40,939 nucleotides of DNA from a virus (Duplodnaviria > Caudoviricetes), in IMG/VR virus record IMGVR_UViG_3300038379_000537, positions 1-40,939 of that record. One strand, given 5' to 3'. The first letter of the stretch is position 1. Every line of letters begins with the position of its first letter. Both the position numbers and the translations under genes were made by a program. Of the stretch, positions 5,724 through 25,035 are shown piece by piece. The notes under the pieces are model-generated. The model ran no database searches and was not told the DNA's origin. It worked only from the letters and a program-made list of their open reading frames with translations.

Positions 5724-6854
5724 CTATCCGTTCCAAATCTTTACAGCCTCGTCCCGCGATAAAGCCGGGCCGATATATTCAAAAGTGCCTCTTATTCTTT
5801 CAGAAAATGAAAATCGCCGAGTGCCAAACCCGACAAATGACATGTCTTTCGGCATAGCTTGGATTGTATTATTTGGCTTGGCAATCATGCGCCAATTATT
5901 CGATCTTGCCCTTGTTTTAATCATGGCCGGGTGGGAAGTTTGAGAAATAAACGAATATCCAAGACCCCGACAAACCGAACCGATATATGCGCTCATTGCA
6001 TTTCCAATGCCCACACCCTGAAAATCGGGCAAACAAACTGTTCGATGCTCCCGTTTTGTGTTTTTGCGCCGGGGGTGAGGAAAATGCAAAATAGCTGTGA
6101 ACGCCACAGGAACACCATCCCAAAAAGCACAAAAACAAACGGCGGATGAATTTAGCGATGTGCTCAAATAATGATGCTTCCGAAATAATTGCCAAGCGGA
6201 CGAATGTACGCGCTTAATTTCAAGCCGAATTTTGGGACGCCGAAGGAACCTCCCGTCCGCAAATTCGTTTGTTGCGGGCTGATAAATCCAATCAGGCTCC
6301 AGCCATTCGGCAATATCGTAATGGCATGAAACAGCAATAAACTTTTGATTTCTGCTTCGCACAGTTTTTGCAATTGCGAAGCTTCCAATTTTCGCGACTG
6401 TTCTATCCACGACGCTGGTGAATTCGTCCATCACTGAAATTTCTCGATTTTCCGCCAGCATACGTGCCATATTGACTCGGAATTGTTCCCCATTTGACAA
6501 AACTCGGAATGGACGCAGCCACGAAGGAGGAGAGGAAAACCCAACAGATGAAAGCAAATCTGTTATTTCCTTGATGCTCATCTCTTTGGGAAAATTGTCA
6601 ACAATGCTATTTTCCTCCGACCATTGCCAGTCTTTGACAACATATTTGCCAAATAATTCTCTTGCCACCGTGCTTTTTCCACTTCCGCTGGGGCCGACGA
6701 TCAATCCGACATTCCATTCCTGCGGCAAATCAAGATCAATTGTCCATTTTTCAAAACTTTTTTCAGATGGCGAAACGTCAAAAATTCCCTCAAGCTGCAT
6801 TACTCGCGGCGTCCTTCTGATATTAGTCTCTCTCAGGATAGTAACGCCCGGCAT
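5724..6854 (-). CDS. ABC-type ATPase fused to GNAT acetyltransferase (putative DNA-modification enzyme)
   Basis: Walker A GPSGSGKST, signature LSNGEQFR, Walker B VMDEFTS, H-loop SCHYD; C-terminal GNAT motif RTVCLPDFQGVGIG and FRKHHYL. Confidence 0.85.
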   Translation of the reverse strand: MPGVTILRETNIRRTPRVMQLEGIFDVSPSEKSFEKWTIDLDLPQEWNVGLIVGPSGSGKSTVARELFGKYVVKDWQWSEENSIVDNFPKEMSIKEITDLLSSVGFSSPPSWLRPFRVLSNGEQFRVNMARMLAENREISVMDEFTSVVDRTVAKIGSFAIAKTVRSRNQKFIAVSCHYDIAEWLEPDWIYQPATNEFADGRFLRRPKIRLEIKRVHSSAWQLFRKHHYLSTSLNSSAVCFCAFWDGVPVAFTAILHFPHPRRKNTKREHRTVCLPDFQGVGIGNAMSAYIGSVCRGLGYSFISQTSHPAMIKTRARSNNWRMIAKPNNTIQAMPKDMSFVGFGTRRFSFSERIRGTFEYIGPALSRDEAVKIWNG

Positions 6855-7796: not shown

Positions 7797-7907
7797 CCGC
7801 CTGATTGTACTCCCCGCCTGCACATCACCACCAGGTGATGTGCAGGCCGGACGGCACAATCAACCGTCTAACCATAACCCACCCGGCGGGGTGCGCCGGG
7901 AGAAAAG
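7797..7907 (+). repeat. Structured intergenic repeat, copy 1
   Basis: 94 bp identical to 8767-8860; hairpins GCCTGCACATCACC/GGTGATGTGCAGGC and CCCGGCG/CGCCGGG, followed by an RBS. Confidence 0.92.
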
Positions 7908-8351: not shown

Positions 8352-8455
8352 CTCCCGCCTGCACATTACCTGGTAGTAATGTGCAGACTGACTGGGCACA
8401 AGCCTGCCGCTTACACCACCAACCCCACCCGGCAGGGATATGCCGGGAAGGAGAA
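8352..8455 (+). repeat. Structured intergenic repeat, diverged copy 2
   Basis: CTGCACATTAC/GTAATGTGCAG and CCCGGCA/TGCCGGG stems with compensatory changes relative to copies 1 and 3. Confidence 0.85.
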
Positions 8456-8459
8456 TGAA

Positions 8460-8774
8460 ATGAACATCACGCGCAAGACTGCAAGCTATAACGCCCGCCG
8501 CTACGGACGCCCCTGGATTGCCCGGGTAACATTTGACACGAACGGCAAGGCCAGTTACGACTGGGGGAATTGGATAGGCACAATTGAGGGGGGTAACGGA
8601 TCGGCCGGTGAGCTAGTCATCACAGTCAATGAGGGGGACATTGTGGCCACCGGCCACAAGGACTTGCGGAAAGGTCCAGCCAATATCAATTATTGGCTGG
8701 TCCGGGATGGTCAGCTGGTACACCTTGACAAAGCCGAGGCCTACCGCATATATACAGCCGCCCCCGCCGCCTGA
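8460..8774 (+). CDS. Hypothetical early protein
   Basis: AAGGAG SD; YNARRYGRPWIARV motif. Confidence 0.8.
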   Translation: MNITRKTASYNARRYGRPWIARVTFDTNGKASYDWGNWIGTIEGGNGSAGELVITVNEGDIVATGHKDLRKGPANINYWLVRDGQLVHLDKAEAYRIYTAAPAA

Positions 8775-8881
8775 TTGTACTCCCCGCCTGCACATCACCA
8801 CCAGGTGATGTGCAGGCCGGACGGCACAATCAACCGTCTAACCATAACCCACCCGGCGGGAATGCGCCGGGAGAAAAGGAG
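8767..8881 (+). repeat. Structured intergenic repeat, copy 3
   Basis: Identical to copy 1 over 94 bp. Confidence 0.92.
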
Positions 8882-11866: not shown

Positions 11867-12851
11867 CAAATACCGCCTTTCCATCTTCAAAACGGGGAAA
11901 TTTTCCGGGTTCACTTTGCCGGCCCCGATACACGGCCGTATAAGCCAGAAATGTCGGCCAGCCGGTGTCCATGAATATTTGCGGATTACGGCGAATGGCG
12001 GTGTTCGTCATCGCCCCTTGGTATTTCCCCTCCCCATCCCTCCAGGCGGCATAATCCAGAAATGCACCCGGATCCTTTCCGTAAACCCCAGACACCCAGG
12101 CCGCAAATTTGCGCCATATCTGCTGCCCCCCCCAGGGCCAGGAAGTCACCCCAAAAGCGGCCTCAAATTCCATGGCGGCATCCCGCACCTTTTGGCCGAC
12201 CCCCTCATTCTCCAAAATTGCGTCCATTAAATCGGGTTTTTCGTTTTTTGGCGCGTAAGCGCCATTAAATGGGTTTCTCTGGGTTTCAATGGGTTTTGTG
12301 TCTCTGTTCAACAGAGGGCTGGCCCTCTGTTCAACAGACCCCTCAGCCCTCTGTTGAACAGAACCCCTCTGTTCAACAGAGTACCTGGCTTTTTGGGTTT
12401 GTTTTCGATATTTTGCGGTTTTTTCGTCCTTCCTTTTCAGCAGTCCCTCCCAATCTATGTTGTTTTCGTTGTCCTGCAACCAGTATTCCTGCCCTTTGCG
12501 CTGGTCCGGTTTTGCGGTCGTCGGCAACAGGATTCTGAATTTGGTAAGCACCTCCAGCGCCTTAATCGTCGCATCCACTCCGACACCGCAGCCCATCGAA
12601 ATAATACACCCATCCGCGGCAACTATCTCCTCTGTGAATTGTGACAGACTGATATTGTCCCTCCTGCTCATGATGTTTTTCTGAAACCCCAGGATGCGGC
12701 GGACCGCAAATGTCAGTATGATATTTTCCACCGGCGAAAGGTAATACATCAGCCGGTCCACAAAAATATTGGGATGTTGGAAGGTGTTTGGAATAACAGC
12801 GTTTCCATTTGTGTTGTATTTTGCCCTTAGATCGTTGACCGCTTTTTTCAT
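11859..12851 (-). CDS. Phage replication initiator protein (lambda O-like position)
   Basis: Upstream of DnaB; N-terminal wHTH-like region (PNIFVDRLM..RRILGF..DNISLSQF); internal iterons. Confidence 0.8.
   Translation of the reverse strand: MKKAVNDLRAKYNTNGNAVIPNTFQHPNIFVDRLMYYLSPVENIILTFAVRRILGFQKNIMSRRDNISLSQFTEEIVAADGCIISMGCGVGVDATIKALEVLTKFRILLPTTAKPDQRKGQEYWLQDNENNIDWEGLLKRKDEKTAKYRKQTQKARYSVEQRGSVQQRAEGSVEQRASPLLNRDTKPIETQRNPFNGAYAPKNEKPDLMDAILENEGVGQKVRDAAMEFEAAFGVTSWPWGGQQIWRKFAAWVSGVYGKDPGAFLDYAAWRDGEGKYQGAMTNTAIRRNPQIFMDTGWPTFLAYTAVYRGRQSEPGKFPRFEDGKAVFDD
12302..12381. repeat. Four iteron-like palindromic repeats CTCTGTT(C/G)AACAGA; putative replication origin
   Basis: Copies start at 12302, 12325, 12349 and 12367, inside the initiator gene. 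Confidence 0.8.
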
Positions 12852-13149: not shown

Positions 13150-13249
13150 CCAAGCACTTGAGATATGCACGAAAGAGGAAACGCCATAAAGCCCCGGCAA
13201 GGCCATGTCGTCACCCCGCTGAGGCGGGAATAATTCCAGGGAAAATAAA

Positions 13250-13849
13250 ATGAGCAAAAGTATTCACGAGGCAATTAACGCTGTCATGGGGGAGGTCGGA
13301 TATGTCAAAAAAACGAGGTCCGACAAATTGAGTTATTCCTTCGCCGGAGAAGCGGCGCTGATCTCGGCGCTGCGTCCGGCAATGGTCGAGCAGGGAATTT
13401 ACATGCACGTTCTCGAAATCAGGGGGATCACGCGGCAGGAATATTCGACCAAAAGCGGGACAAGCATGGTGAATACCGTCATTCAGGCGGTGGTTAGATT
13501 CACCCATGCCCCGTCCGGAACGTCCATTGACACAGCCGCGGTCGGCGAAGGGTCAGACGCTGGGGATAAGGGAGCCAATAAAGCCATGACCGGCCTGTAT
13601 AAGTATGCCCTGCGTCAAACATTCTGCATCGAAACCGGCGATGACCCGGATAAGTTTGCCAGCGAGGAGCGGGCTGTCCCCAAAGAATATCGCCAAAAGC
13701 TGATTGAACGGTATGATGCTCTGTCCAAAGAGGCCCGAAAATTCGGCGTGGAAGTTTACGACCTGAATGAGCATATGCAGGATGAAGAAATAACAGAAGC
13801 CGGAGTTGAATTGAAGAGCCGGCTGGATGCGGCAAAGGCGGGTAAATAA
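13250..13849 (+). CDS. erf: ERF-family ssDNA annealing protein
   Basis: YSFAGEAALISALRPAM..GEGSDAGDKGANKAMT..KYAL..TGDDPD motif. Confidence 0.88.
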   Translation: MSKSIHEAINAVMGEVGYVKKTRSDKLSYSFAGEAALISALRPAMVEQGIYMHVLEIRGITRQEYSTKSGTSMVNTVIQAVVRFTHAPSGTSIDTAAVGEGSDAGDKGANKAMTGLYKYALRQTFCIETGDDPDKFASEERAVPKEYRQKLIERYDALSKEARKFGVEVYDLNEHMQDEEITEAGVELKSRLDAAKAGK

Positions 13850-14855: not shown

Positions 14856-14883
14856 TGTACATTCCGTATAAACATAGTTAGCC
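14856..14883 (+). other. attI-like recombination site A
   Basis: TGTACATTCCGTATAAACATAG|TT matches 23/24 nt of the motif at 19595; its GTTAGCCAGAT is the exact reverse complement of ATCTGGCTAAC (15023-15033), which opens the next attC. Confidence 0.75.
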
Positions 14884-14896
14884 AGATAGGAGAAAA

Positions 14897-15136
14897 ATGA
14901 AGCCTTTCTTTGTCGTGTTCTTTAGTTCGTTTGGCGCGTTTGTTGGCGCGGTTATGGGCACAAATGGTTACGGTTGGCGCACATGGCAATTTTATGTCGT
15001 GCTTGCTTTGCTTTGCTTAGTCATCTGGCTAACAAAGCGTGCACTGGACTGGGCTAATGCGCCCACGAAAGAGCAGGCTCGGCGCAATAAGTTTCTGCGC
15101 GAACATTTCGGTCCTCCAAAATCGCCCAGCCAGTAA
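14897..15136 (+). CDS. Cassette A1: small two-TM membrane protein
   Basis: AGGAG SD; two hydrophobic stretches; reads through its attC. Confidence 0.75.
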   Translation: MKPFFVVFFSSFGAFVGAVMGTNGYGWRTWQFYVVLALLCLVIWLTKRALDWANAPTKEQARRNKFLREHFGPPKSPSQ

Positions 15137-15151
15137 CGCAAACCGTTCGGC
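15027..15151 (+). repeat. attC site A1
   Basis: GGCTAAC..GCGTGCACTGGACTGGGC / GCCCAGCCAGTAACGC..GTTCGGC with two unpaired bases in the stem. Confidence 0.9.
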
Positions 15152-15170
15152 GGCTTCCTTTAGGTGGCTT

Positions 15171-15440
15171 ATGTATATGTTCTTTGTAGGTTTGAAAGCA
15201 AAATGGGAGTTGCGAGAAATTGATGGTTGTCCTCCCTGTCCTTCTTGTGGTCACAAACACCGTTTCAACGGTTGTGTTTGCGGGTGCGAGAACAAAGCAT
15301 GGCGAGAGTATCCGCCTGTTCCCTGGTGGGTGCGTCAGATATGGTTTTGGATTTACGATATTTCCTTCCATTTCAGCCACCTGACAAAGCATGCAGCGGA
15401 TGGTGGCAACGCCGCGTCAGAGTTTAGTAATTTTGAATAA
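15171..15440 (+). CDS. Cassette A2: Cys-rich hypothetical protein
   Basis: ORF between GTT core and attC; CPSCGH..CVCGC. Confidence 0.7.
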   Translation: MYMFFVGLKAKWELREIDGCPPCPSCGHKHRFNGCVCGCENKAWREYPPVPWWVRQIWFWIYDISFHFSHLTKHAADGGNAASEFSNFE

Positions 15441-15488
15441 TTATCAGGTCTTGCGTTCACCCACCACCGCTAACGCAAACCGTTGGAG
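15379..15488 (+). repeat. attC site A2
   Basis: ACCTGAC..GCATGCAGCGGATGGTGG / CCACCACCGCTAACGC..GTTGGAG. Confidence 0.88.
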
Positions 15489-15497
15489 GACACTCGC

Positions 15498-15797
15498 ATG
15501 AATGAATATACCCAAGCATTAGAACGTGTCGCTAAAATATCGGCGCAAATTTACAAAGTAACTAGCCTAGCGTTTGCCCGCACAAAACAAATATGTTGCT
15601 CGCATGGTAACTGCCCGTCATATCCTACTCATGCGTGGTGGTGTGATAAATGCTGGTTCGAGTTGAAAGACGCTCTTGATGAGTTAGAGTCCTTCCAAGA
15701 AACCGCCCTGAAAGAAATCTTTGCTGGCAGTCAGTCTGCCCAACAAGGGCGTGAACCCGGCAAGGGCAACGTCCCGGAGCCGGTGAAGTCGGAGTAA
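15498..15797 (+). CDS. Cassette A3: hypothetical protein
   Basis: GGAGG SD inside the GTT core; Cys/His cluster. Confidence 0.7.
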   Translation: MNEYTQALERVAKISAQIYKVTSLAFARTKQICCSHGNCPSYPTHAWWCDKCWFELKDALDELESFQETALKEIFAGSQSAQQGREPGKGNVPEPVKSE

Positions 15798-15837
15798 TCT
15801 TGCGTTGCCCCTGCGGGTTACGTGCAGGCTGTTAGCC
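15738..15837 (+). repeat. attC site A3
   Basis: GCCCAAC..GCGTGAACCCGGCAAGGGCAACG / CGTTGCCCCTGCGGGTTACG..GTTAGCC. Confidence 0.85.
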
Positions 15838-15855
15838 GTCACTGAAAGGATAAAT

Positions 15856-16128
15856 ATGACTGCACACATTCACAGCTGGAATTGGGTGGTGGTGGGGTGG
15901 ACAATCTGGGCTGAGTGCTCAAAGGATTTTTGCGGGGCAACCGTCTCTCTTGTCGACATTGCGGAGATGGCAAAAGATATTCCTTACTGCGGCCCCATTT
16001 GCCCGTATTGCCGGGAATCATTACACTATAAGCCAACAAAAACTTGCGGCGGGCTGACACAGCGTACACCCGGCTTTGAGCAGGCTGTGGCGAATGACGA
16101 TGATCCAGGCGATGCCCCAAGCGGGTAA
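15856..16128 (+). CDS. Cassette A4: Cys-rich hypothetical protein
   Basis: AAGGA SD; CPYC motif; stop inside the attC. Confidence 0.7.
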   Translation: MTAHIHSWNWVVVGWTIWAECSKDFCGATVSLVDIAEMAKDIPYCGPICPYCRESLHYKPTKTCGGLTQRTPGFEQAVANDDDPGDAPSG

Positions 16129-16140
16129 CGCAAGTCCAGG
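16052..16140 (+). repeat. attC site A4 (degenerate, GTT core lost)
   Basis: GGCTGAC..GCGTACACCCGGCTT / AAGCGGGTAACGC followed by AAGTCCAGG instead of ..CCGTT. Confidence 0.7.
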
Positions 16141-16146
16141 AGAAAT

Positions 16147-16503
16147 ATGGACGCGCAAATTGAAACACTCGATGAGCAAACAGAAAAAGAAATTGAAGTC
16201 GCGCTGGGTGAATTGCGAAGCATTCAGTTTTCAGACAACACACATACTCAGGCAGTCGAAGCGCGTGAAGAAGTTGAGATCATTATTCGCGCATTGGCAA
16301 AACGTCTAACACAGCGTGCATGCGAATGGCATCTTGACGATGACGAAGCAGGCGCATGGGAATCTGCGTGTGGTGAATTGTGGTGCTTTGGAGATGGTGA
16401 TCCAAAAGATAATGGCATGCAGTATTGCCCGTTCTGTGGTTGTCATCTAACACAGCGTGTGCCTGACGCTTCGCCGTCAAGCTCACAAGCGGACGAGCTA
16501 TAA
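16147..16503 (+). CDS. Cassette A5: hypothetical protein, probably two fused cassette ORFs
   Basis: Internal attC left-arm remnant GTCTAACACAGCGTGCA at 16304-16320; C-half ends in YCPFCG. Confidence 0.7.
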   Translation: MDAQIETLDEQTEKEIEVALGELRSIQFSDNTHTQAVEAREEVEIIIRALAKRLTQRACEWHLDDDEAGAWESACGELWCFGDGDPKDNGMQYCPFCGCHLTQRVPDASPSSSQADEL

Positions 16504-16533
16504 GGCTCGCGCAGGTAACGCAAACCGTTAGGT
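16445..16533 (+). repeat. attC site A5
   Basis: ATCTAAC..GCGTGTGCCTGACGC / GCGCAGGTAACGCAAACCGTTAGGT. Confidence 0.85.
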
Positions 16534-16537
16534 GCTT

Positions 16538-16714
16538 ATGGAAACAGACATTGAAATTCATATTCTGAAAGACGGTACGCCAATTATTACCGCAATTGTC
16601 GCAGGTCGCCCAATCGCAATGACATCTTTTGAATGGCAGTTGTTTTGCCGTGATATGCTCTGCGCAATTGAAACGCACCTGACAAAACATGCACCTGCGG
16701 AAGGAGAAACGTGA
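16538..16714 (+). CDS. Cassette A6: hypothetical protein (left-arm-only attC at 16675-16700)
   Basis: Cassette start GTTAGGTGC pairs with GCACCTGAC at 16675. Confidence 0.7.
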   Translation: METDIEIHILKDGTPIITAIVAGRPIAMTSFEWQLFCRDMLCAIETHLTKHAPAEGET

Positions 16715-16932
16715 TGAACGTAGGTCAACTGAAAAAGATGTTGGAACAATATCCTGATGATATGGAAATCCTGAATAGACGTTGCAGCGATTATGAAATT
16801 ATCTCAGAAGACGAATGGCATGTTGTTCAGGGTGTCGAGAATGAAGGTGGCTGGGTAATGCGCTCACACCCTACTATGAGTGACGAAAATAAGCGTAAAG
16901 AAAAATCTTATTTGTATCTTGAAGGAAATTAA
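16711..16932 (+). CDS. Hypothetical protein (attC remnant at 16936-16955)
   Basis: AAGGAG SD; MNVGQLKKMLEQYPDD N-terminus typical of small phage proteins. Confidence 0.75.
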   Translation: MMNVGQLKKMLEQYPDDMEILNRRCSDYEIISEDEWHVVQGVENEGGWVMRSHPTMSDENKRKEKSYLYLEGN

Positions 16933-16991
16933 CACGCTCAACAAAGCGCGCAAAAGATTGTTGTAAAAATAGGCAAGAGGAAGGAGAAACT

Positions 16992-17321
16992 GTGAAAAAT
17001 AAGTATTTTTGTGTAGCAATAACTTTTTGGCAATATGTTTGGATGGGCGTAAAAGATGTGTTTACAGATAAAGAAGCCCAAAGTAAAAGTTTTCAAAGCA
17101 GGATGATTTCAAGTGTATTTGGAGTCTTAATTGGCCTGGCGCTTGGAAGCCTTATGGCTTTTGCAATAAAGTTCTTTAATATATTTGATATTTTTGCAAA
17201 GTGTGTTGTCGGCTTTTTTATCTTTGTTTGTGTGGTGGATTTGATTTGTGCAATAATTTTTCTTTTCATAAGTTGGCGCAAAGCCGTCAATGATTGTTGG
17301 GATAAATTCCACGCAGGCTGA
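16992..17321 (+). CDS. Hypothetical membrane protein (attC left arm at 17316-17346)
   Basis: AAGGAG SD, GTG start, two TM segments; followed by GGCTGACAAAGCGTGCAGCGGAC. Confidence 0.75.
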   Translation: MKNKYFCVAITFWQYVWMGVKDVFTDKEAQSKSFQSRMISSVFGVLIGLALGSLMAFAIKFFNIFDIFAKCVVGFFIFVCVVDLICAIIFLFISWRKAVNDCWDKFHAG

Positions 17322-17360
17322 CAAAGCGTGCAGCGGACAAGTGGCAGGAGGAGGTCTTTT

Positions 17361-19594: not shown

Positions 19595-19622
19595 TGTACA
19601 TTCTGTATAAACATAGTTGTGC
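19595..19622 (+). other. attI-like recombination site B
   Basis: TGTACATTCTGTATAAACATAG|TT; its GTTGTGCGC is the reverse complement of GCGCACAAC (24022-24030), which opens the next attC. Confidence 0.75.
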
Positions 19623-19649
19623 GCTTGTTGCGAAAGGATAGGTGTCCCT

Positions 19650-19820
19650 ATAATTTGCTCAAATATTTACGGCGTGGTGCGTGATAACCCTGGCATTCGG
19701 GCGGGCAAAATCGCCGCCTTGCTAAACGTCCAACGCTCACAGATAACCCGCGCGTTGCCGCAAATGCAAAGGCGCGGATACTTATTGAGCGAATATAAAA
19801 ACAGGTTATTTGCTTTCTGA
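19650..19820 (+). CDS. Small winged-HTH (MarR-like) protein; start uncertain, possibly truncated
   Basis: VRDNPGIRAGKIAALLNVQRSQITRALPQMQRRGYLLSE HTH pattern; no clear in-frame ATG. Confidence 0.55.
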   Translation: MICSNIYGVVRDNPGIRAGKIAALLNVQRSQITRALPQMQRRGYLLSEYKNRLFAF

Positions 19821-19850
19821 AACCTGAATGAACCTAAAAGGAAAAATGAA

Positions 19851-21353
19851 ATGAAACTTACAAATGATACCGTAACAAAAGTTGTCTCTGTGCTTGGCTC
19901 AATGATGAACAGCGCAACCGTCACTGGCAAGGGGAACAAACTTGATTTTTATGCCGACAGAGTACGGCAGGCAACGACAAAGCCTGATTTGGTAACTACC
20001 CTGAATCGCTTCGGAGAATTGCTCGGCTCATCCGCTTTGCAGGGCGAAGATTTGAAAAATCTTTTGCTGGCTGGAAAAGCGCAGGACGCAAAAGCGGTTT
20101 ATCAATGGTTGCGCGAATTGCCGCGTTTGCCAGTTGGAATCGCAAAAGAAAAATTGGCAGACCAGCCCGCGTTGATTGAAGCAGTTTGCGACACATACGA
20201 GGCGCAGGAAGTCGCCATCGGCGCACTTAAGCCGCGCCCGAAATTTGACATTAATATGACCGCCACAGTTTTACAGGCTTTATCTCATGGCGCAGATACC
20301 AAAGCGGGAAACGCTACGCTATTTCGCCGCGCAAAAGTTCGGGGCGGAATGGAATTACCTTTCTTTTCCGCGAATGCAATTGGCGGCATTATGCGTGATT
20401 TGCTTTCCGACCATTTCACCGTTGCGATGGGGTTCAAGGTTGACCGCGCCGACCCAATTTGGGATACATGGTTTTTCCATCTGCTATATAGCGGCGGCAT
20501 TATGCAAGATGGATATATCCCCAAAGAATTTGAGCGCGTTCTTACTGGCGCGGCGGCTGGAACTGTCCGCAGTGATGGCGTGCGTCAGTTGCGCTCCATG
20601 CTTCCGTTCTTCTCTGTTCTTGGTGGCGTTGGAAAGCATCCCATCGAAGGTTATATTTTCATAAATGACCTTCGCCCCAAATGTATTGAATGGGGAAACG
20701 GCGGAGAAAAGTCAGTCAACAGCATGATGGACTGGCGTTATATCACGCGCCCTGATAACTACGAAGGACGTACCAGCAAGGCGCAGAAAGAATCGGGCGA
20801 TACAGCCAGCGACGACACTCAAAACACTTCGATGATTGCAAATGCGGAATGCTTGCAGGAAGGCGAAGTCTTGGAAGGCGGATTTTTCCTATCCAGCCAC
20901 ATGACAGAAATCGAACGCGCCGCGCTGTATAAAGGTTTGACCCTGCTCAAAGAATATGGCTATCTTGGCGCAAAGGGTCATCGCGGATATGGCTTGTGTG
21001 CAATTGACTATCAAACTGATTTGGTCATTGACCCCAAGCCATATGATGATTATCTCGCCGCGAACAAGGATGAAATTATCGGCTACCTGAAAGGCATTGG
21101 CGCGTTTCCGAAGGCAGAGAAGGCAAAGAAAGAAACTCAGAGTAAAAAGCAAGAGAAGATTTTCAGTAGCGATGGAGCGTATGACGCCACTAATGATGTT
21201 GCAAGAATCATTCGTGTGTGCGCGACGCATGGAGATAGTTTTACACCCGAAGAAGCACGTGACAGATGGGAAGATATATCAAGTGGTATTGCTGGATGGC
21301 TATCACTTCCAGTATCAGATGATGAACTTTACGAATACTTCGAGAAACGCTAA
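19851..21353 (+). CDS. csf2: Type IV Cas7-like RAMP (Csf2) with N-terminal Cas11-like helical domain and C-terminal extension
   Basis: ALSHG..GNATLFRR, LPFFSANAIGGIMRD, FHLLYSGG, LRSMLPFFSVLGG, and G-rich loop LGAKGHRGYG characteristic of Csf2/Cas7. Confidence 0.85.
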   Translation: MKLTNDTVTKVVSVLGSMMNSATVTGKGNKLDFYADRVRQATTKPDLVTTLNRFGELLGSSALQGEDLKNLLLAGKAQDAKAVYQWLRELPRLPVGIAKEKLADQPALIEAVCDTYEAQEVAIGALKPRPKFDINMTATVLQALSHGADTKAGNATLFRRAKVRGGMELPFFSANAIGGIMRDLLSDHFTVAMGFKVDRADPIWDTWFFHLLYSGGIMQDGYIPKEFERVLTGAAAGTVRSDGVRQLRSMLPFFSVLGGVGKHPIEGYIFINDLRPKCIEWGNGGEKSVNSMMDWRYITRPDNYEGRTSKAQKESGDTASDDTQNTSMIANAECLQEGEVLEGGFFLSSHMTEIERAALYKGLTLLKEYGYLGAKGHRGYGLCAIDYQTDLVIDPKPYDDYLAANKDEIIGYLKGIGAFPKAEKAKKETQSKKQEKIFSSDGAYDATNDVARIIRVCATHGDSFTPEEARDRWEDISSGIAGWLSLPVSDDELYEYFEKR

Positions 21354-21354
21354 C

Positions 21355-22089
21355 ATGCACGCCACAGACCTAATTGCAACGTGCATGACGGACGAACAGA
21401 AAGAGCCGCTTCCCGAAGCGGCTCAAACTGGCGTTTGCTGTGTATCAGGCGCGGAAACGCTGACCATCCAGCGCAAGCATTTATTCGGCGCAAACTTCAA
21501 CGACCTGAATATTCTCGTATGCCCCGACTCTTCACGAGTCGGGGTGAATGTCTGGTATGCGTTCAAGTTCGGGGAGCCTGGCATAAACCCAGAAACAGGC
21601 GAAGTGAACAAGCGTAAGAAGTACAAAGAAATGCAGATGTGTTGGTGGACGGATGGCGAAACATTCCGTGAGATGAACAAGGCAAAAATCCGCGAATTGG
21701 TTTTGCGCGGAACGACGTCAAAGCGTTGGGCGGGATGGGTTACTACATCCTATAAAAAGCATGGCTCTTTGCGCTCGCCTGTCAACAATACACCTTTTGG
21801 CATTTGGGGCTTCGATGGTTTGCAAGTCCGCGCCAATGACAAAGAGCAAGTATTGACAATGTGGGCAAAATTGCGAGACGCGCAAAAGAACGGCATTGGG
21901 CGCACAGGCATCGAGACGCTTGATATTCCAGTCCCCATCATGTCTAAAGTTGGAATTGTATTTTGCAACGATTTTATCTTGTGGGCGCGTCCGCTTGTTC
22001 AATCGCCGTTATATCAATTCCTGACTTATCTTTTGCCAAGTCAGGAAGAATTGAAAGAAGGGTACAGCGATGAAAATTTGTATGATTGA
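21355..22089 (+). CDS. csf1: Type IV Cas8-like large subunit (Csf1-like)
   Basis: N-terminal GVCCVSG..FGANFND..CPDS (degenerate Zn finger), SYKKHGSLRSPVN motif; size and position between csf2 and csf3. Confidence 0.7.
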   Translation: MHATDLIATCMTDEQKEPLPEAAQTGVCCVSGAETLTIQRKHLFGANFNDLNILVCPDSSRVGVNVWYAFKFGEPGINPETGEVNKRKKYKEMQMCWWTDGETFREMNKAKIRELVLRGTTSKRWAGWVTTSYKKHGSLRSPVNNTPFGIWGFDGLQVRANDKEQVLTMWAKLRDAQKNGIGRTGIETLDIPVPIMSKVGIVFCNDFILWARPLVQSPLYQFLTYLLPSQEELKEGYSDENLYD

Positions 22090-23332
22090 ATCTGTCCACG
22101 ATGAAGATACAGGGTCAATTGGACCTTACTTCGTGGCGGAAGCCGTGCGATCTTTAGGGCATACTGTTGACGTAATTCCTTTCGACTCTCCACGCCGACA
22201 TTATGACGTTGAATTGATTAGCGTGCATCATCCAGCCAGTTACCCTGTTTTTCAACAAACCCCGAAGCATGGAAAAATAAGAATCGTCGGCGGACACGTT
22301 ACCTATACAGACCCGCGTCCGCTTATACCTTTGAGTGACGTTGTTTGCGTTGGAGATGGGGAAGTGTGGATAAAGGACATCATACAAAAGATTGACGCAG
22401 ACCGCGATTATCTGAAAAAGGTTGAACATATCGAAGGCGCAATCTTGCCTGAATTTTGGAGCGTTGGCGATATACTTCCGCATCCCAACTTTATTCGTCC
22501 GCTGCTTAATAACCCGCCGTATCTAAGCAAGCCAGGAACATACAAGGCGGCTTGGTATGTTGAGATAGCAAGGGGATGTCCGTTTAGTTGCTCTTACTGC
22601 GAAGTGGGCAACTCTATGCCATACCGTCTCCACAAACTTGACGAAATTATTGAGACAATCAAAACGCTTGATACAAATCAGGCAAATAAAATTGTGTTCT
22701 TTGCTCCTGACGAAGCCAGTTATCCGAAATATGGCGAGTTGGTAAAAGTGGCGAAAGCGCACGGGATGCGGCAAGTTGTAGGGCTTTACCGCCTTGACCA
22801 AATTATGCGGCACGATTTGCAATTTGAACCTAATCAACTTATAAAAGTTGGAATAGATGGATTGTCAGAGCGTATGCGTTATCAAAATAAACGTCGAATT
22901 TCCAACGAAAATATTTATGATTACTTCAAACTTCTTACTTCGCGTGGTCATAAGTTTTTTAAGGCATACCAATTATTCAGCCTGCCGAACGAAACAGAAG
23001 ATGATTTTTACGAATGGGAAGCGCTTATGGAACGAGTGCGGGCTATCCCTGTTCGTGAAACGGTTAAGTTTATGATTGCCTGGTCTCCATTGATTCCACG
23101 TCCTAAAACGCCTTTCGCAAACGAAACTCCGCATTACGACACGAAGGTAGCAAAGTTAATAAAAAATTGGCATAAGCGCGTTGCAGTGCCAGATAGCGAT
23201 CCAGGCTGGCAAATTGACTTTGAACGAATGCAGGGAACAAAAACATATCAAAAAAATGTAGAGATGTATTCTGGAAACGAGTTGTCTTTGATTGAAGGCG
23301 CAAGTTATATACATCCTGCTTGGAGACAATAA
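22070..23332 (+). CDS. B12-binding-domain radical SAM enzyme
   Basis: EIARGCPFSCSYC (CxxxCxxC); N-terminal IVGGHVT..DVVCVGDGE cobalamin-binding-like domain; GIDGLSERMR, LPNETEDD, PLIPRPKTPF. Confidence 0.9.
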   Translation: MKICMIESVHDEDTGSIGPYFVAEAVRSLGHTVDVIPFDSPRRHYDVELISVHHPASYPVFQQTPKHGKIRIVGGHVTYTDPRPLIPLSDVVCVGDGEVWIKDIIQKIDADRDYLKKVEHIEGAILPEFWSVGDILPHPNFIRPLLNNPPYLSKPGTYKAAWYVEIARGCPFSCSYCEVGNSMPYRLHKLDEIIETIKTLDTNQANKIVFFAPDEASYPKYGELVKVAKAHGMRQVVGLYRLDQIMRHDLQFEPNQLIKVGIDGLSERMRYQNKRRISNENIYDYFKLLTSRGHKFFKAYQLFSLPNETEDDFYEWEALMERVRAIPVRETVKFMIAWSPLIPRPKTPFANETPHYDTKVAKLIKNWHKRVAVPDSDPGWQIDFERMQGTKTYQKNVEMYSGNELSLIEGASYIHPAWRQ

Positions 23333-24012
23333 TGAGCAAACCTAAATTGAATCCGTTGAAAGTCACGTTTGAAATGGACATTGCAGGCGCGATATATGAC
23401 CCGTTTGTTCCGCCGACATTGGACGGTATCATTGATTGGTGTCTCTCGCCGATGGTGAGACAATCCAAGTCTGCGCCGACGCGGGGCGGAGAACCCGAAG
23501 AAATCCGCCTACCATTTGGCACTTGGCGCGTTGGTAAACATTGGGGCTGGTGCGCGTCTGCCCTGCAACCGCTGGATGATGAAACCGTGATGACATCTAT
23601 CCGCTATTGGCGTAAGCGATTCCGCGAGAACAAAATATCAATGGTGAATGGTGTTATCAATACGCAAGCTGGAGCAATGCGCGATTACAACTTGCCTTTT
23701 GAAGTGCAACATCCAACATCATTAACGGCTTATTGTGTAGCAGACAGGCATACCATCCATGACCTTTTGCGCCGCAACTTGAAATACATCGCCAAGAAAA
23801 AACATCGCGGCATGGGATTGGTGACTGACTTTTCGGTTGAGATTATTGCAGATGATTACTCTTTGATGTGCGACGGTAAAGCAATGCGCTGGTTGCCGAC
23901 TGCGGAAGGCTTGCGCGAAGTCCGCTTGCGCCCGCCATATTGGAATAATAACGAGCGCGTGGCGTGTTGCGAAGTTGGAGACGAGTATCATGGCGCAATC
24001 AGTCAACCGTAA
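23332..24012 (+). CDS. csf3: Type IV Cas5-like RAMP (Csf3)
   Basis: PLKVTFEM..TLDGII, WCASAL, YWRKRF, C-terminal G-loop YIAKKKHRGMGLV, RWLP..RPPYW; TAATG overlap with the radical SAM stop. Confidence 0.82.
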   Translation: MSKPKLNPLKVTFEMDIAGAIYDPFVPPTLDGIIDWCLSPMVRQSKSAPTRGGEPEEIRLPFGTWRVGKHWGWCASALQPLDDETVMTSIRYWRKRFRENKISMVNGVINTQAGAMRDYNLPFEVQHPTSLTAYCVADRHTIHDLLRRNLKYIAKKKHRGMGLVTDFSVEIIADDYSLMCDGKAMRWLPTAEGLREVRLRPPYWNNNERVACCEVGDEYHGAISQP

Positions 24013-24023
24013 AAACAAAACGC

Positions 24024-24150
24024 GCACAACACCGCTTGCACCCGACAAGTGGGATTCTGTGCCTTTTCTGGCATTGTCCACGCTTTGAGTTTTTCCACAT
24101 CTCGAAGTTTATCCAAGCCCGCCCACTTGCGGGTAAAGCAAAAGTTCGGC
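24024..24150 (+). repeat. attC site B1 (closes the Cas cassette)
   Basis: GCACAAC..GCTTGCACCCGACAAGTGGG / CCCACTTGCGGGTAAAGC..GTTCGGC. Confidence 0.9.
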
Positions 24151-24174
24151 GGCACGCCGAAGAAAGTAGGTAAC

Positions 24175-24405
24175 GTGGATTTTTCTTTCTGTAAATGTGG
24201 TCACTACCACTCGTCACATAGTTTCGGGAAAGGTTGTAGGTATTGCGATTGCAAATTAAGTGATGTCGAAGTTGTATCCGCGAACTCAGAAGCCGCCGAA
24301 CACCGTATGCACCTGACCGCCTTTGGCGTGGGTACTGCGGCGGTAATTCCCCTGCAAGCGTCACTGTTTGCGGATGACCAGCCCGCTACAATCGGCGGCA
24401 GGTAA
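24175..24405 (+). CDS. Cassette B2: small Cys/His protein
   Basis: GTG start; CKCGH..H..C..CDC; stop inside the attC. Confidence 0.6.
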   Translation: MDFSFCKCGHYHSSHSFGKGCRYCDCKLSDVEVVSANSEAAEHRMHLTAFGVGTAAVIPLQASLFADDQPATIGGR

Positions 24406-24420
24406 TGCAGTCCGTTGGAA
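24295..24420 (+). repeat. attC site B2
   Basis: GCCGAAC..GTATGCACCTGACCGCC / GGCGGCAGGTAATGC..GTTGGAA. Confidence 0.88.
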
Positions 24421-24430
24421 GGCTAAAGCG

Positions 24431-24973
24431 ATGTTGTATCCGATAATTTACGCAGACCCACCGTGGAGATATGAGTACCCTCCAATGGGCGCAAGTAACC
24501 GAAGTATTGAGAACCATTATCAAACCATGACCATCGATGAAATAAAGGCTATGAATATCCCTAGTGCAAGCAATGGCGTTCTTTTTTTGTGGGCAACCGC
24601 TCCGAAGTTGAAAGAGTGTATTGATGTAATGCTTGCTTGGGGTTATCAATATAGAACGTGCATGTCATGGGACAAAGAAGTTATTGGCATGGGTTACTGG
24701 TTTCGTAATCAGCATGAATTACTCCTTGTTGGCTTAAAAGGTAAGTTTTCTCCACCAGTGCCGTCGCAAAGAATGTCAAGTGTATGGCGCGAGAAGCGCA
24801 CGAAACACAGCAAGAAGCCAGATGGTATCCGTGAGTGGATAAGTTCCTGTTATCCCAATGTTCCAAAACTGGAGTTATTCGCTCGGCAAAGAGTTGAGGG
24901 TTGGGATGTGTTTGGGAACGAAGTAGAAGGTTCTATACGCCTTCCAACAAAGCGTGAACCCGACAAAAACTAG
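24431..24973 (+). CDS. MT-A70-family N6-adenine methyltransferase (cassette B3)
   Basis: IYADPPW, LFLWAT, GMGYWFRNQHELLLVG, HSKKP, KLELFAR, GWDVFGNE. Confidence 0.92.
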   Translation: MLYPIIYADPPWRYEYPPMGASNRSIENHYQTMTIDEIKAMNIPSASNGVLFLWATAPKLKECIDVMLAWGYQYRTCMSWDKEVIGMGYWFRNQHELLLVGLKGKFSPPVPSQRMSSVWREKRTKHSKKPDGIREWISSCYPNVPKLELFARQRVEGWDVFGNEVEGSIRLPTKREPDKN

Positions 24974-25035
24974 AGTCGGGCAAAATTATCAGGTTCGGCG
25001 TTCCCCGTTTTTGCGGGTTACGCAAGCCGTTGGGC
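24942..25035 (+). repeat. attC site B3
   Basis: GCCTTCCAAC (complement of cassette start GTTGGAAGGC)..GCGTGAACCCGACAAAAAC / GTTTTTGCGGGTTACGC..GTTGGGC. Confidence 0.9.

Follow-up and report, generated by a model that had tools for sequence, protein, structure and literature searches.

The stretch of DNA analysed here (the window: all 40,939 nucleotides of the IMG/VR virus record IMGVR_UViG_3300038379_000537) is a complete tailed-phage genome of ~40.9 kb (99% complete), with a 121-nt terminal repeat and with portal, terminase, capsid, tail, DnaB and lysin genes recognized in a Pfam scan of the window's proteins. It carries an operon of type IV-like Cas effector genes that lies between an attI-like site and an attC site and that we read as one integron gene cassette. 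The features of this locus, all on the plus strand, are the following.

19595..19618, + strand: attI-like docking site of array B, crossover G/TT at 19616/19617 (near copies in other phages)
19617..24144, + strand: Cas-operon cassette, 4,528 bp (matched ends, attC models, comparison with relatives)
19617..19820, + strand: small winged helix-turn-helix (HTH) frame, probably decayed (Pfam MarR, E 2e-4, under the cut-off; relatives)
19851..21353, + strand: Cas11-Csf2 (Cas7) fusion, 500 aa (PADLOC Csf2_0_IV, 7e-37)
21355..22089, + strand: Csf1 (type IV Cas8-like), 244 aa (PADLOC Csf1_0_IV, 1.3e-7)
22070..23332, + strand: radical SAM enzyme with a putative cobalamin-binding-like N-domain (Pfam Radical_SAM, 5.8e-12)
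23332..24012, + strand: Csf3 (type IV Cas5), 226 aa (PADLOC Csf3_0_IV, 1.9e-27; TIGR03116, 3e-20, under the cut-off)
24024..24150, + strand: attC closing the Cas cassette, with R'' at 24024-24030, L'' at 24036-24043, L' at 24131-24137 and R' at 24144-24150 (heuristic scan, fold, covariance model)

The integron integrase IntI recombines the folded bottom strand of an attC with attI or with another attC at G/TT, where the slash marks the crossover, and cassettes travel as circles that enter the first position at attI. Core sites follow the consensus GTTRRRY. In the window, the cassette begins at G/TTGTGCGC (19616), in agreement with an earlier note, made from the sequence alone, that had set the start behind an attI-like motif. 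The 9-nt reverse complement of this start, GCGCACAAC, is found at 24022-24030; its one further occurrence in the window, at 1856, is unrelated. The neighbouring cassettes show start/R'' complementarity of the lengths given in that note, namely 11 nt for A1 (start 14877) and 10 nt for B2 and B3, and a chance match was rightly considered improbable there (P ~0.003 for 9 nt, as the 900 nt ahead of csf2 contain 11 GTT sites). Rejoining the cassette ends in a fold lowered the energy from -22.4 to -30.5 kcal/mol and gave a full R stem of 9 bp. All genes of the cassette face the attC.

The covariance-model check of the attC that the note had proposed was run with two home-made models: R1, a poor model with 9 pairs built from 17 attCs of other loci only, and R2, built from 16 attCs, six of them from the window, with the Cas-cassette attC itself excluded from training. 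R2 recovered the well-formed site at exactly 24024-24150 on the bottom strand (33.8 bits, E 6e-6), and the heuristic scan and R1 placed it at the same coordinates. In the fold, the bottom strand forms an attC-type hairpin with extrahelical bases. A contig from a second study spans csf3 and this attC and differs from the window at 2 of 162 nt. No credible attC was present between 19616 and 24024 according to the heuristic scan, R1 and R2 (best R2 match 8.6 bits, E 4.9), so the absence of a second site inside the segment, which had been noticed by eye, was confirmed.

Related operons were gathered in three scans with a Csf2 alignment, which gave 64, 27 and 7 loci, and 43 distinct Csf2 sequences with both flanks were retained, five loci with less than 100 nt of flank having been dropped before the count. 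The full cassette signature was found in seven of the 43 (L003, L005, L006/67, L017/71, L072, L034 and L098), in each of which an attC starts 6-19 nt past csf3 and its R'' matches, perfectly and over 9-11 nt, a GTT site ahead of csf2; a partial signature was found in six (L002, L008, L023, L069, L070 and L097). In most relatives an operon of this kind lacks cassette ends; these 30 served as a control, in which the best matches were 3-7 nt long or no candidate existed. The perfect pairs differ in sequence between the window, L003, L005, L006, L017 and L034/L098, and when starts and R'' were cross-paired between loci they matched over 3-7 nt only, except for L034/L098, which have a common start. 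The window and L005 have the same leader and differ in three letters of the start, and these changes are mirrored in R'' ~4 kb away, which suggests that both ends once formed one stem. Model support independent of training was obtained for L003 (R2), for L017, L034 and L098 (R1) and weakly for L005. The L006 attC belonged to the R2 training set and is supported by its fold, and the L072 attC site repeats that of L017. At the near-palindromic sites of L034 and L098 the heuristic scan miscalled the strand, and the orientation was taken from the sequences.

The edges of DNA similarity to close relatives fall near the cassette ends. Similarity to L002, L005, L009 and L092 begins at 19595-19622, and similarity to L002, L003 and L005 ends in the left arm of the attC. 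The earlier note had held that relatives with unrelated boundaries would speak against the operon being one cassette unit; for a sizeable minority of relatives this objection failed, since the left edge lies no more than ~20 nt from 19616, the right edge falls inside the attC or shortly ahead of it, and start and R'' change in step. In L017, L034, L098, L070 and L097 the cassette begins 12-24 nt before csf2, and R'' begins 6-9 nt past the csf3 match. The contexts are phage-like, with terminase and portal genes beside L017 and L070 and RecT/YqaJ genes beside the L034 array, where the operon is one cassette among at least 12 attCs. Leader genes vary, and three different HTH-like frames occur in the window, in L002/L003 and in L006. 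Cassette forms, with operons of 3.3-4.5 kb, are scattered across the Csf2 tree, in five or more parts of it, and are not a single clade (AU (approximately unbiased) test p 1e-40, with 9 changes over 28 chosen rows); the tree is unrooted, the cassette group was defined by flanks but post hoc, and gains are not separable from losses. Csf2 had no match in 50,697 records of cultured phages, and among plasmids only four distant archaeal ones matched. As a separate observation, the attC of the L034 operon and a second attC of that array (8534-8623 / 13200-13289 pair) agree at 88 of 90 positions, and L098 has the R'' of L034 on another attC body; this looks like copying or exchange of attC bodies.

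The same leader was found at differing docking sites. In L092, a contig of an Anaerolinea metagenome-assembled genome (MAG), it follows the right arm of an attC; in L002 it follows an intI remnant; and in L005 and L009, where variants of the array-head motif occur, it stands behind other attI-like sites. The remnant in L002 is the C-terminal part of an intI and is 80% identical to an IntI of the Anaerolinea MAG over 46 residues. In the window, arrays A and B start at 14856 and 19595, and their heads share a 24-nt motif ending in ATAG/TT (23 of 24 positions identical). Near copies of it, each with G/TT and a cassette-like start behind it, exist in L004, L153 and genome G385; L153, a viral contig, has one cassette after the motif, with an attC of 39.7 bits. 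Among 401 genomes belonging to the Anaerolinea MAG's order, one carried a near copy. Two further loci were noted: L102 (G001:C287) has an intI that lies among phage-like replication genes and bears an attI-like site at its 3' end, and L002 (430-610) retains only the intI 3' end before its cassette. The host that supplies IntI is probably a member of the Anaerolineae (Chloroflexota), because the closest Csf2 proteins in named genomes come from Chloroflexota MAGs (59-62%), 55 of the 151 genomes from the Anaerolinea MAG's order encode an IntI that scores over the cut-off, and attCs of the same type adjoin Anaerolineales intI genes.

These results lead us to propose, with good though not complete confidence, that the IV-B-like Cas operon between the attI-like site and its matching attC moves as one cassette by means of a host IntI acting in trans. 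The operon would once have been circular, its two ends paired as a single attC stem; the host integron integrase would have inserted this circle at G/TT of the attI-like site, the operon may be read by phage transcription running through that site, and it would leave the phage again as a single cassette. Recombination by IntI at G/TT accounts for both the matched ends and the differing docking sites. That the segment is a cassette by descent we regard as very probable, and that it can still be excised as somewhat probable. Its first position in the array is consistent with recent entry or reshuffling. A sigma-70-like promoter over the attI-like site did not score above chance.

Several observations weigh against this proposal. 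The start, GTTGTGC, agrees with GTTRRRY at six of seven positions, with one departure. R1 scored the closing attC weakly and on the top strand (15.8 bits, E 0.15). Folded in full, the 131-nt bottom strand was no more stable than its shuffles (z -1.0), owing to its long loop. Likeness to host attI sites was weak, the window sites ranking 6 and 10 of 1,221 GTT sites under a matrix built from 14 of 31 intI upstream regions. Among the relatives, 30 of 43 have no cassette ends, the close ones L004, L066 and L093 included; the attC of L002 is intact with only 7 of 9 positions complementary, and that of L008 has no matching start. The nearest relative, L001 (93%), has no attC; its similarity breaks off at 24019, which is three bases short of the R'' match, and its upstream side is missing. 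As to present mobility, the circle junction and the empty site that the note had suggested looking for were searched for in contigs only, and neither joint appeared in two contig sets, one of them probably from the source sample and the other yielding only short pieces, although contigs are unable to exclude either. The note had also suggested looking for phages that lack exactly 19617-24144; viral contigs scanned twice by motif and once by neighbouring genes yielded no sister phage without the block. Furthermore, long cassettes recombine poorly (10.1101/2024.07.02.601686; here and below, what is said of cited papers applies to their accessible parts).

Among the alternatives, the one that best survives is that the operon arrived as a cassette and is now fixed, being too long or too seldom exposed to IntI. 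The missing circle and empty site, the decayed HTH frame, the poor recombination of long cassettes and the decayed ends of L070, L008 and L002 would all suit it. However, R'' still matches the start at nine of nine positions, the L-box stem is intact, and the close leader occurs at several different docking sites, so that we consider such fixation rather unlikely. Alternatively, homologous or illegitimate recombination could have placed the operon inside an existing small cassette, for example that of the HTH gene, the ends being inherited and IntI not needed for capture. The variable leader gene (three HTH-like frames), the swap of the middle gene between close relatives (radical SAM 47% against 89-93% for the csf genes in L001) and the near identity (88/90) of the L034 closing attC to another array attC point in this direction. 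Yet four other clades have no leader gene and carry their ends tight on csf2 and csf3, and matched ends at differing docking sites require movement of the whole unit. This origin, which would be compatible with later IntI mobility, is thus improbable. Use of the sites by some other recombinase than IntI, phage-encoded or Xer-like, appears more doubtful still: a non-IntI tyrosine recombinase does follow the L034 array, but no PF00589 gene was found in the window or in five related viral records, the attC anatomy is canonical, an intI remnant lies directly before the L002 cassette, and the same attC type stands beside Anaerolineales intI. A terminator or chance hairpin with a coincidental 9-nt match, for which the whole-site z of -1.0 and the weak R1 score could be cited, has almost nothing to recommend it in view of the R2 match (E 6e-6), the compensatory matches in six further sequences and best matches of at most 7 nt in the 30 non-cassette relatives.

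The genes called in the earlier note (HTH, csf2, csf1, radical SAM and csf3) hold in that order, with two corrections: csf2 encodes a Cas11-Csf2 fusion, and the HTH frame is decayed. Compared with L005, L009 and L092, this frame has a premature stop, and the start codon used in L005 and L092 is replaced; in P0003 an HTH is joined to Csf2 in one fused protein. The fusion consists of a Cas11-like part (residues 1-120), Csf2 (134-429) and a C-terminal extension, and its predicted Csf2 fold matches type IV Csf2 chains and backbones in Foldseek. The typeIV_Cas11 models match the N-domain in 32 of 40 family members and not in the window's own protein; the family profile of this domain matches PDB Cas11c (E 3e-4), and its top structural match is the IV-B chain 7jhy_h with a middling Z of 6.1 (root-mean-square deviation 3.5, 101 aligned). 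The 70-residue extension (21140-21353) is also present in P0002 only, and in L001 it lies in another frame. The radical SAM enzyme carries the CxxxCxxC core (Pfam, alignment), and its N-domain is matched by NCBIfam B12-rSAM models (down to 4e-20) and by Radical_SAM_N2, all under the cut-off.

The slot between csf1 and csf3 holds a CysH-like gene in most relatives (40 slot proteins scanned) and in some also ParB/DUF3440 pairs or GNAT genes. Between the window and L001 the radical SAM enzymes are 47% identical and the csf genes 89-93%; therefore, the enzyme in this slot is often exchanged. All 14 viral relatives of the radical SAM enzyme adjoin csf genes. Nine further viral loci of its family were without attC, so the enzyme is not tied to the cassette form. 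The slot is expanded in L016, L022, L024, L029, L038, L042, L050, L089 and L096, which have PAPS-reductase/DUF3440 plus ParB-like pairs, GNAT or methylase genes. A repeat search of the window found no CRISPR-spaced repeats, and thus neither a CRISPR array nor a mini-array; cas6 and dinG were absent among the 30 open reading frames (of 236 listed) scanned against Pfam. Repeats near L010 were considered as CRISPR and rejected as coding-type tandem repeats. In L044 (~680-850), a CRISPR-like mini-array with ~35-nt repeats and 36-nt spacers lies ~300 nt upstream of csf2. The designation type IV-like was borne out by PADLOC (Csf1, Csf2, Csf3) and the Cas11 domain and can be narrowed: judged from its sequence and by the definition in PMC8175902, the cargo is a type IV-B-like variant and not a full IV-B member, because csf1-3 and cas11 are present and a radical SAM gene stands in the cysH slot.

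The remaining cassette features of the window are listed below.

14856..16533, + strand: array A, headed by the twin of the attI-like site (14856), attCs at 15027, 15379, 15738, 16052 (decayed) and 16445 (motif and attC scans, models)
24145..24414, + strand: cassette B2, attC 24295-24420 (10-nt start/R'' match; heuristic and model matches)
24415..25029, + strand: cassette B3, MT-A70 methyltransferase 24428-24973, attC 24942-25035 (10-nt start/R'' match, Pfam, model)

Arrays A and B are AT-richer accessory regions (GC 0.46-0.47 compared with 0.54-0.56 elsewhere). No tyrosine recombinase (PF00589) was matched anywhere in the window genome or in the five related viral records checked. With intI missing, the arrays are of the CALIN type (clusters of attCs without an integrase) with attI-like heads and do not constitute a complete integron. 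In the region of array A (14856-17340) the distal attCs decay, with R'' reading GAC and half sites at 16304, 16679 and 17316. Elsewhere in the window, identical 94-nt repeats with a palindromic core (7797-7890 and 8767-8860; third partial copy 8354-8386) flank small open reading frames, an ABC-type ATPase fused to a GNAT domain (5724-6854) adjoins the terminase genes, and iteron-like direct and inverted repeats (12303-12384) within the gene before dnaB likely mark the replication origin.

Phage CALINs have been described (Qi et al. 2023, PMC9892861), and IntI1 recombined five of six phage attCs in that study. The window resembles those phages in having attC arrays without intI and a methyltransferase cassette; in prophage M16-3 an attI heads a CALIN, as attI-like sites head the window arrays, and one myovirus has several open reading frames between attCs. 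Unlike those phages, for which no Cas cargo appears in the accessible part of the paper, the window has a 4.5-kb four-gene effector operon as a cassette, with compensatory ends across many phages. A study of 85,204 RefSeq cassettes (Darracq et al., 10.1101/2024.07.02.601686) reported no defence system with more than two components and stated that integrons lack CRISPR-Cas entirely. The window cassette is like its chromosomal-integron cassettes in carrying a defence-type function, and differs in having four to five genes, in lying on a phage and in probably serving that phage. Type IV-B systems comprise csf1, cas11, csf2, csf3 and a cysH-like gene, as in the Mycobacterium JS623 complex (PDB 7jhy; PMC8175902, PMC7038947), and viral examples are known (PMC10541130, 10.1101/2023.08.02.551345). 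The window operon shares with them Csf1, Csf2, Csf3, a Cas11 domain, the lack of a CRISPR array, a mobile element as carrier and, in most relatives, the CysH-like protein. It differs from them in the fusion of Cas11 ahead of Csf2, in the gene order (cas11-csf2, csf1, enzyme, csf3), in the radical SAM enzyme replacing CysH, and in the cassette packaging, without mention in the accessible parts of the IV-B papers. Integrons and radical SAM are unmentioned in the main texts of PMC7038947, PMC12669027 and PMC10910872. Our literature search, covering mostly open papers, titles and abstracts, found no Cas operon as an integron cassette, in agreement with the earlier note, which knew of none; supplements, which could hold such loci, fell outside the search. 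Phage attC arrays and viral IV-B systems by themselves are already published. The default 4-kb aggregation distance of IntegronFinder is a possible reason why such cassettes were missed. PMC9024848 mentions this threshold and gives no value for it.

For the role of the cargo, we tentatively suggest, by analogy, that a filament of fused Cas11-Csf2 with Csf1 and Csf3 binds RNA and may direct an exchangeable modifying enzyme, either CysH-like or radical SAM, to nucleic acid. It would thereby help the phage against the defences of its host or against rival elements, and would not act as an adaptive CRISPR system. A model of a scaffold plus a modifying enzyme was proposed for CasCysH (PMC8175902) and is here extended to radical SAM; RNA sponging is a published alternative. 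It is also conceivable, at a little under even probability, that phages of several phyla repeatedly convert whole IV-B-like operons to cassettes and swap them between docking sites with the host integrase, near-identical pairs with and without attC being snapshots of cassette birth.

The concept of the integron cassette is stretched by a Cas effector operon of 3.3-4.5 kb, compared with defence cassettes of at most two components. The limits of the cassette mark a minimal IV-B-like unit of four genes with almost no non-coding DNA; therefore, any guide RNA would have to come from outside, from the attC or from the leader. Within this unit the enzyme slot is exchangeable. Close pairs of operons with and without attC, such as the window and L001, make the cassette origin testable. 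If cassettes are indeed born repeatedly in this way, such pairs would open the making of cassettes to direct study, and integrons would be a route of Cas-module transfer.

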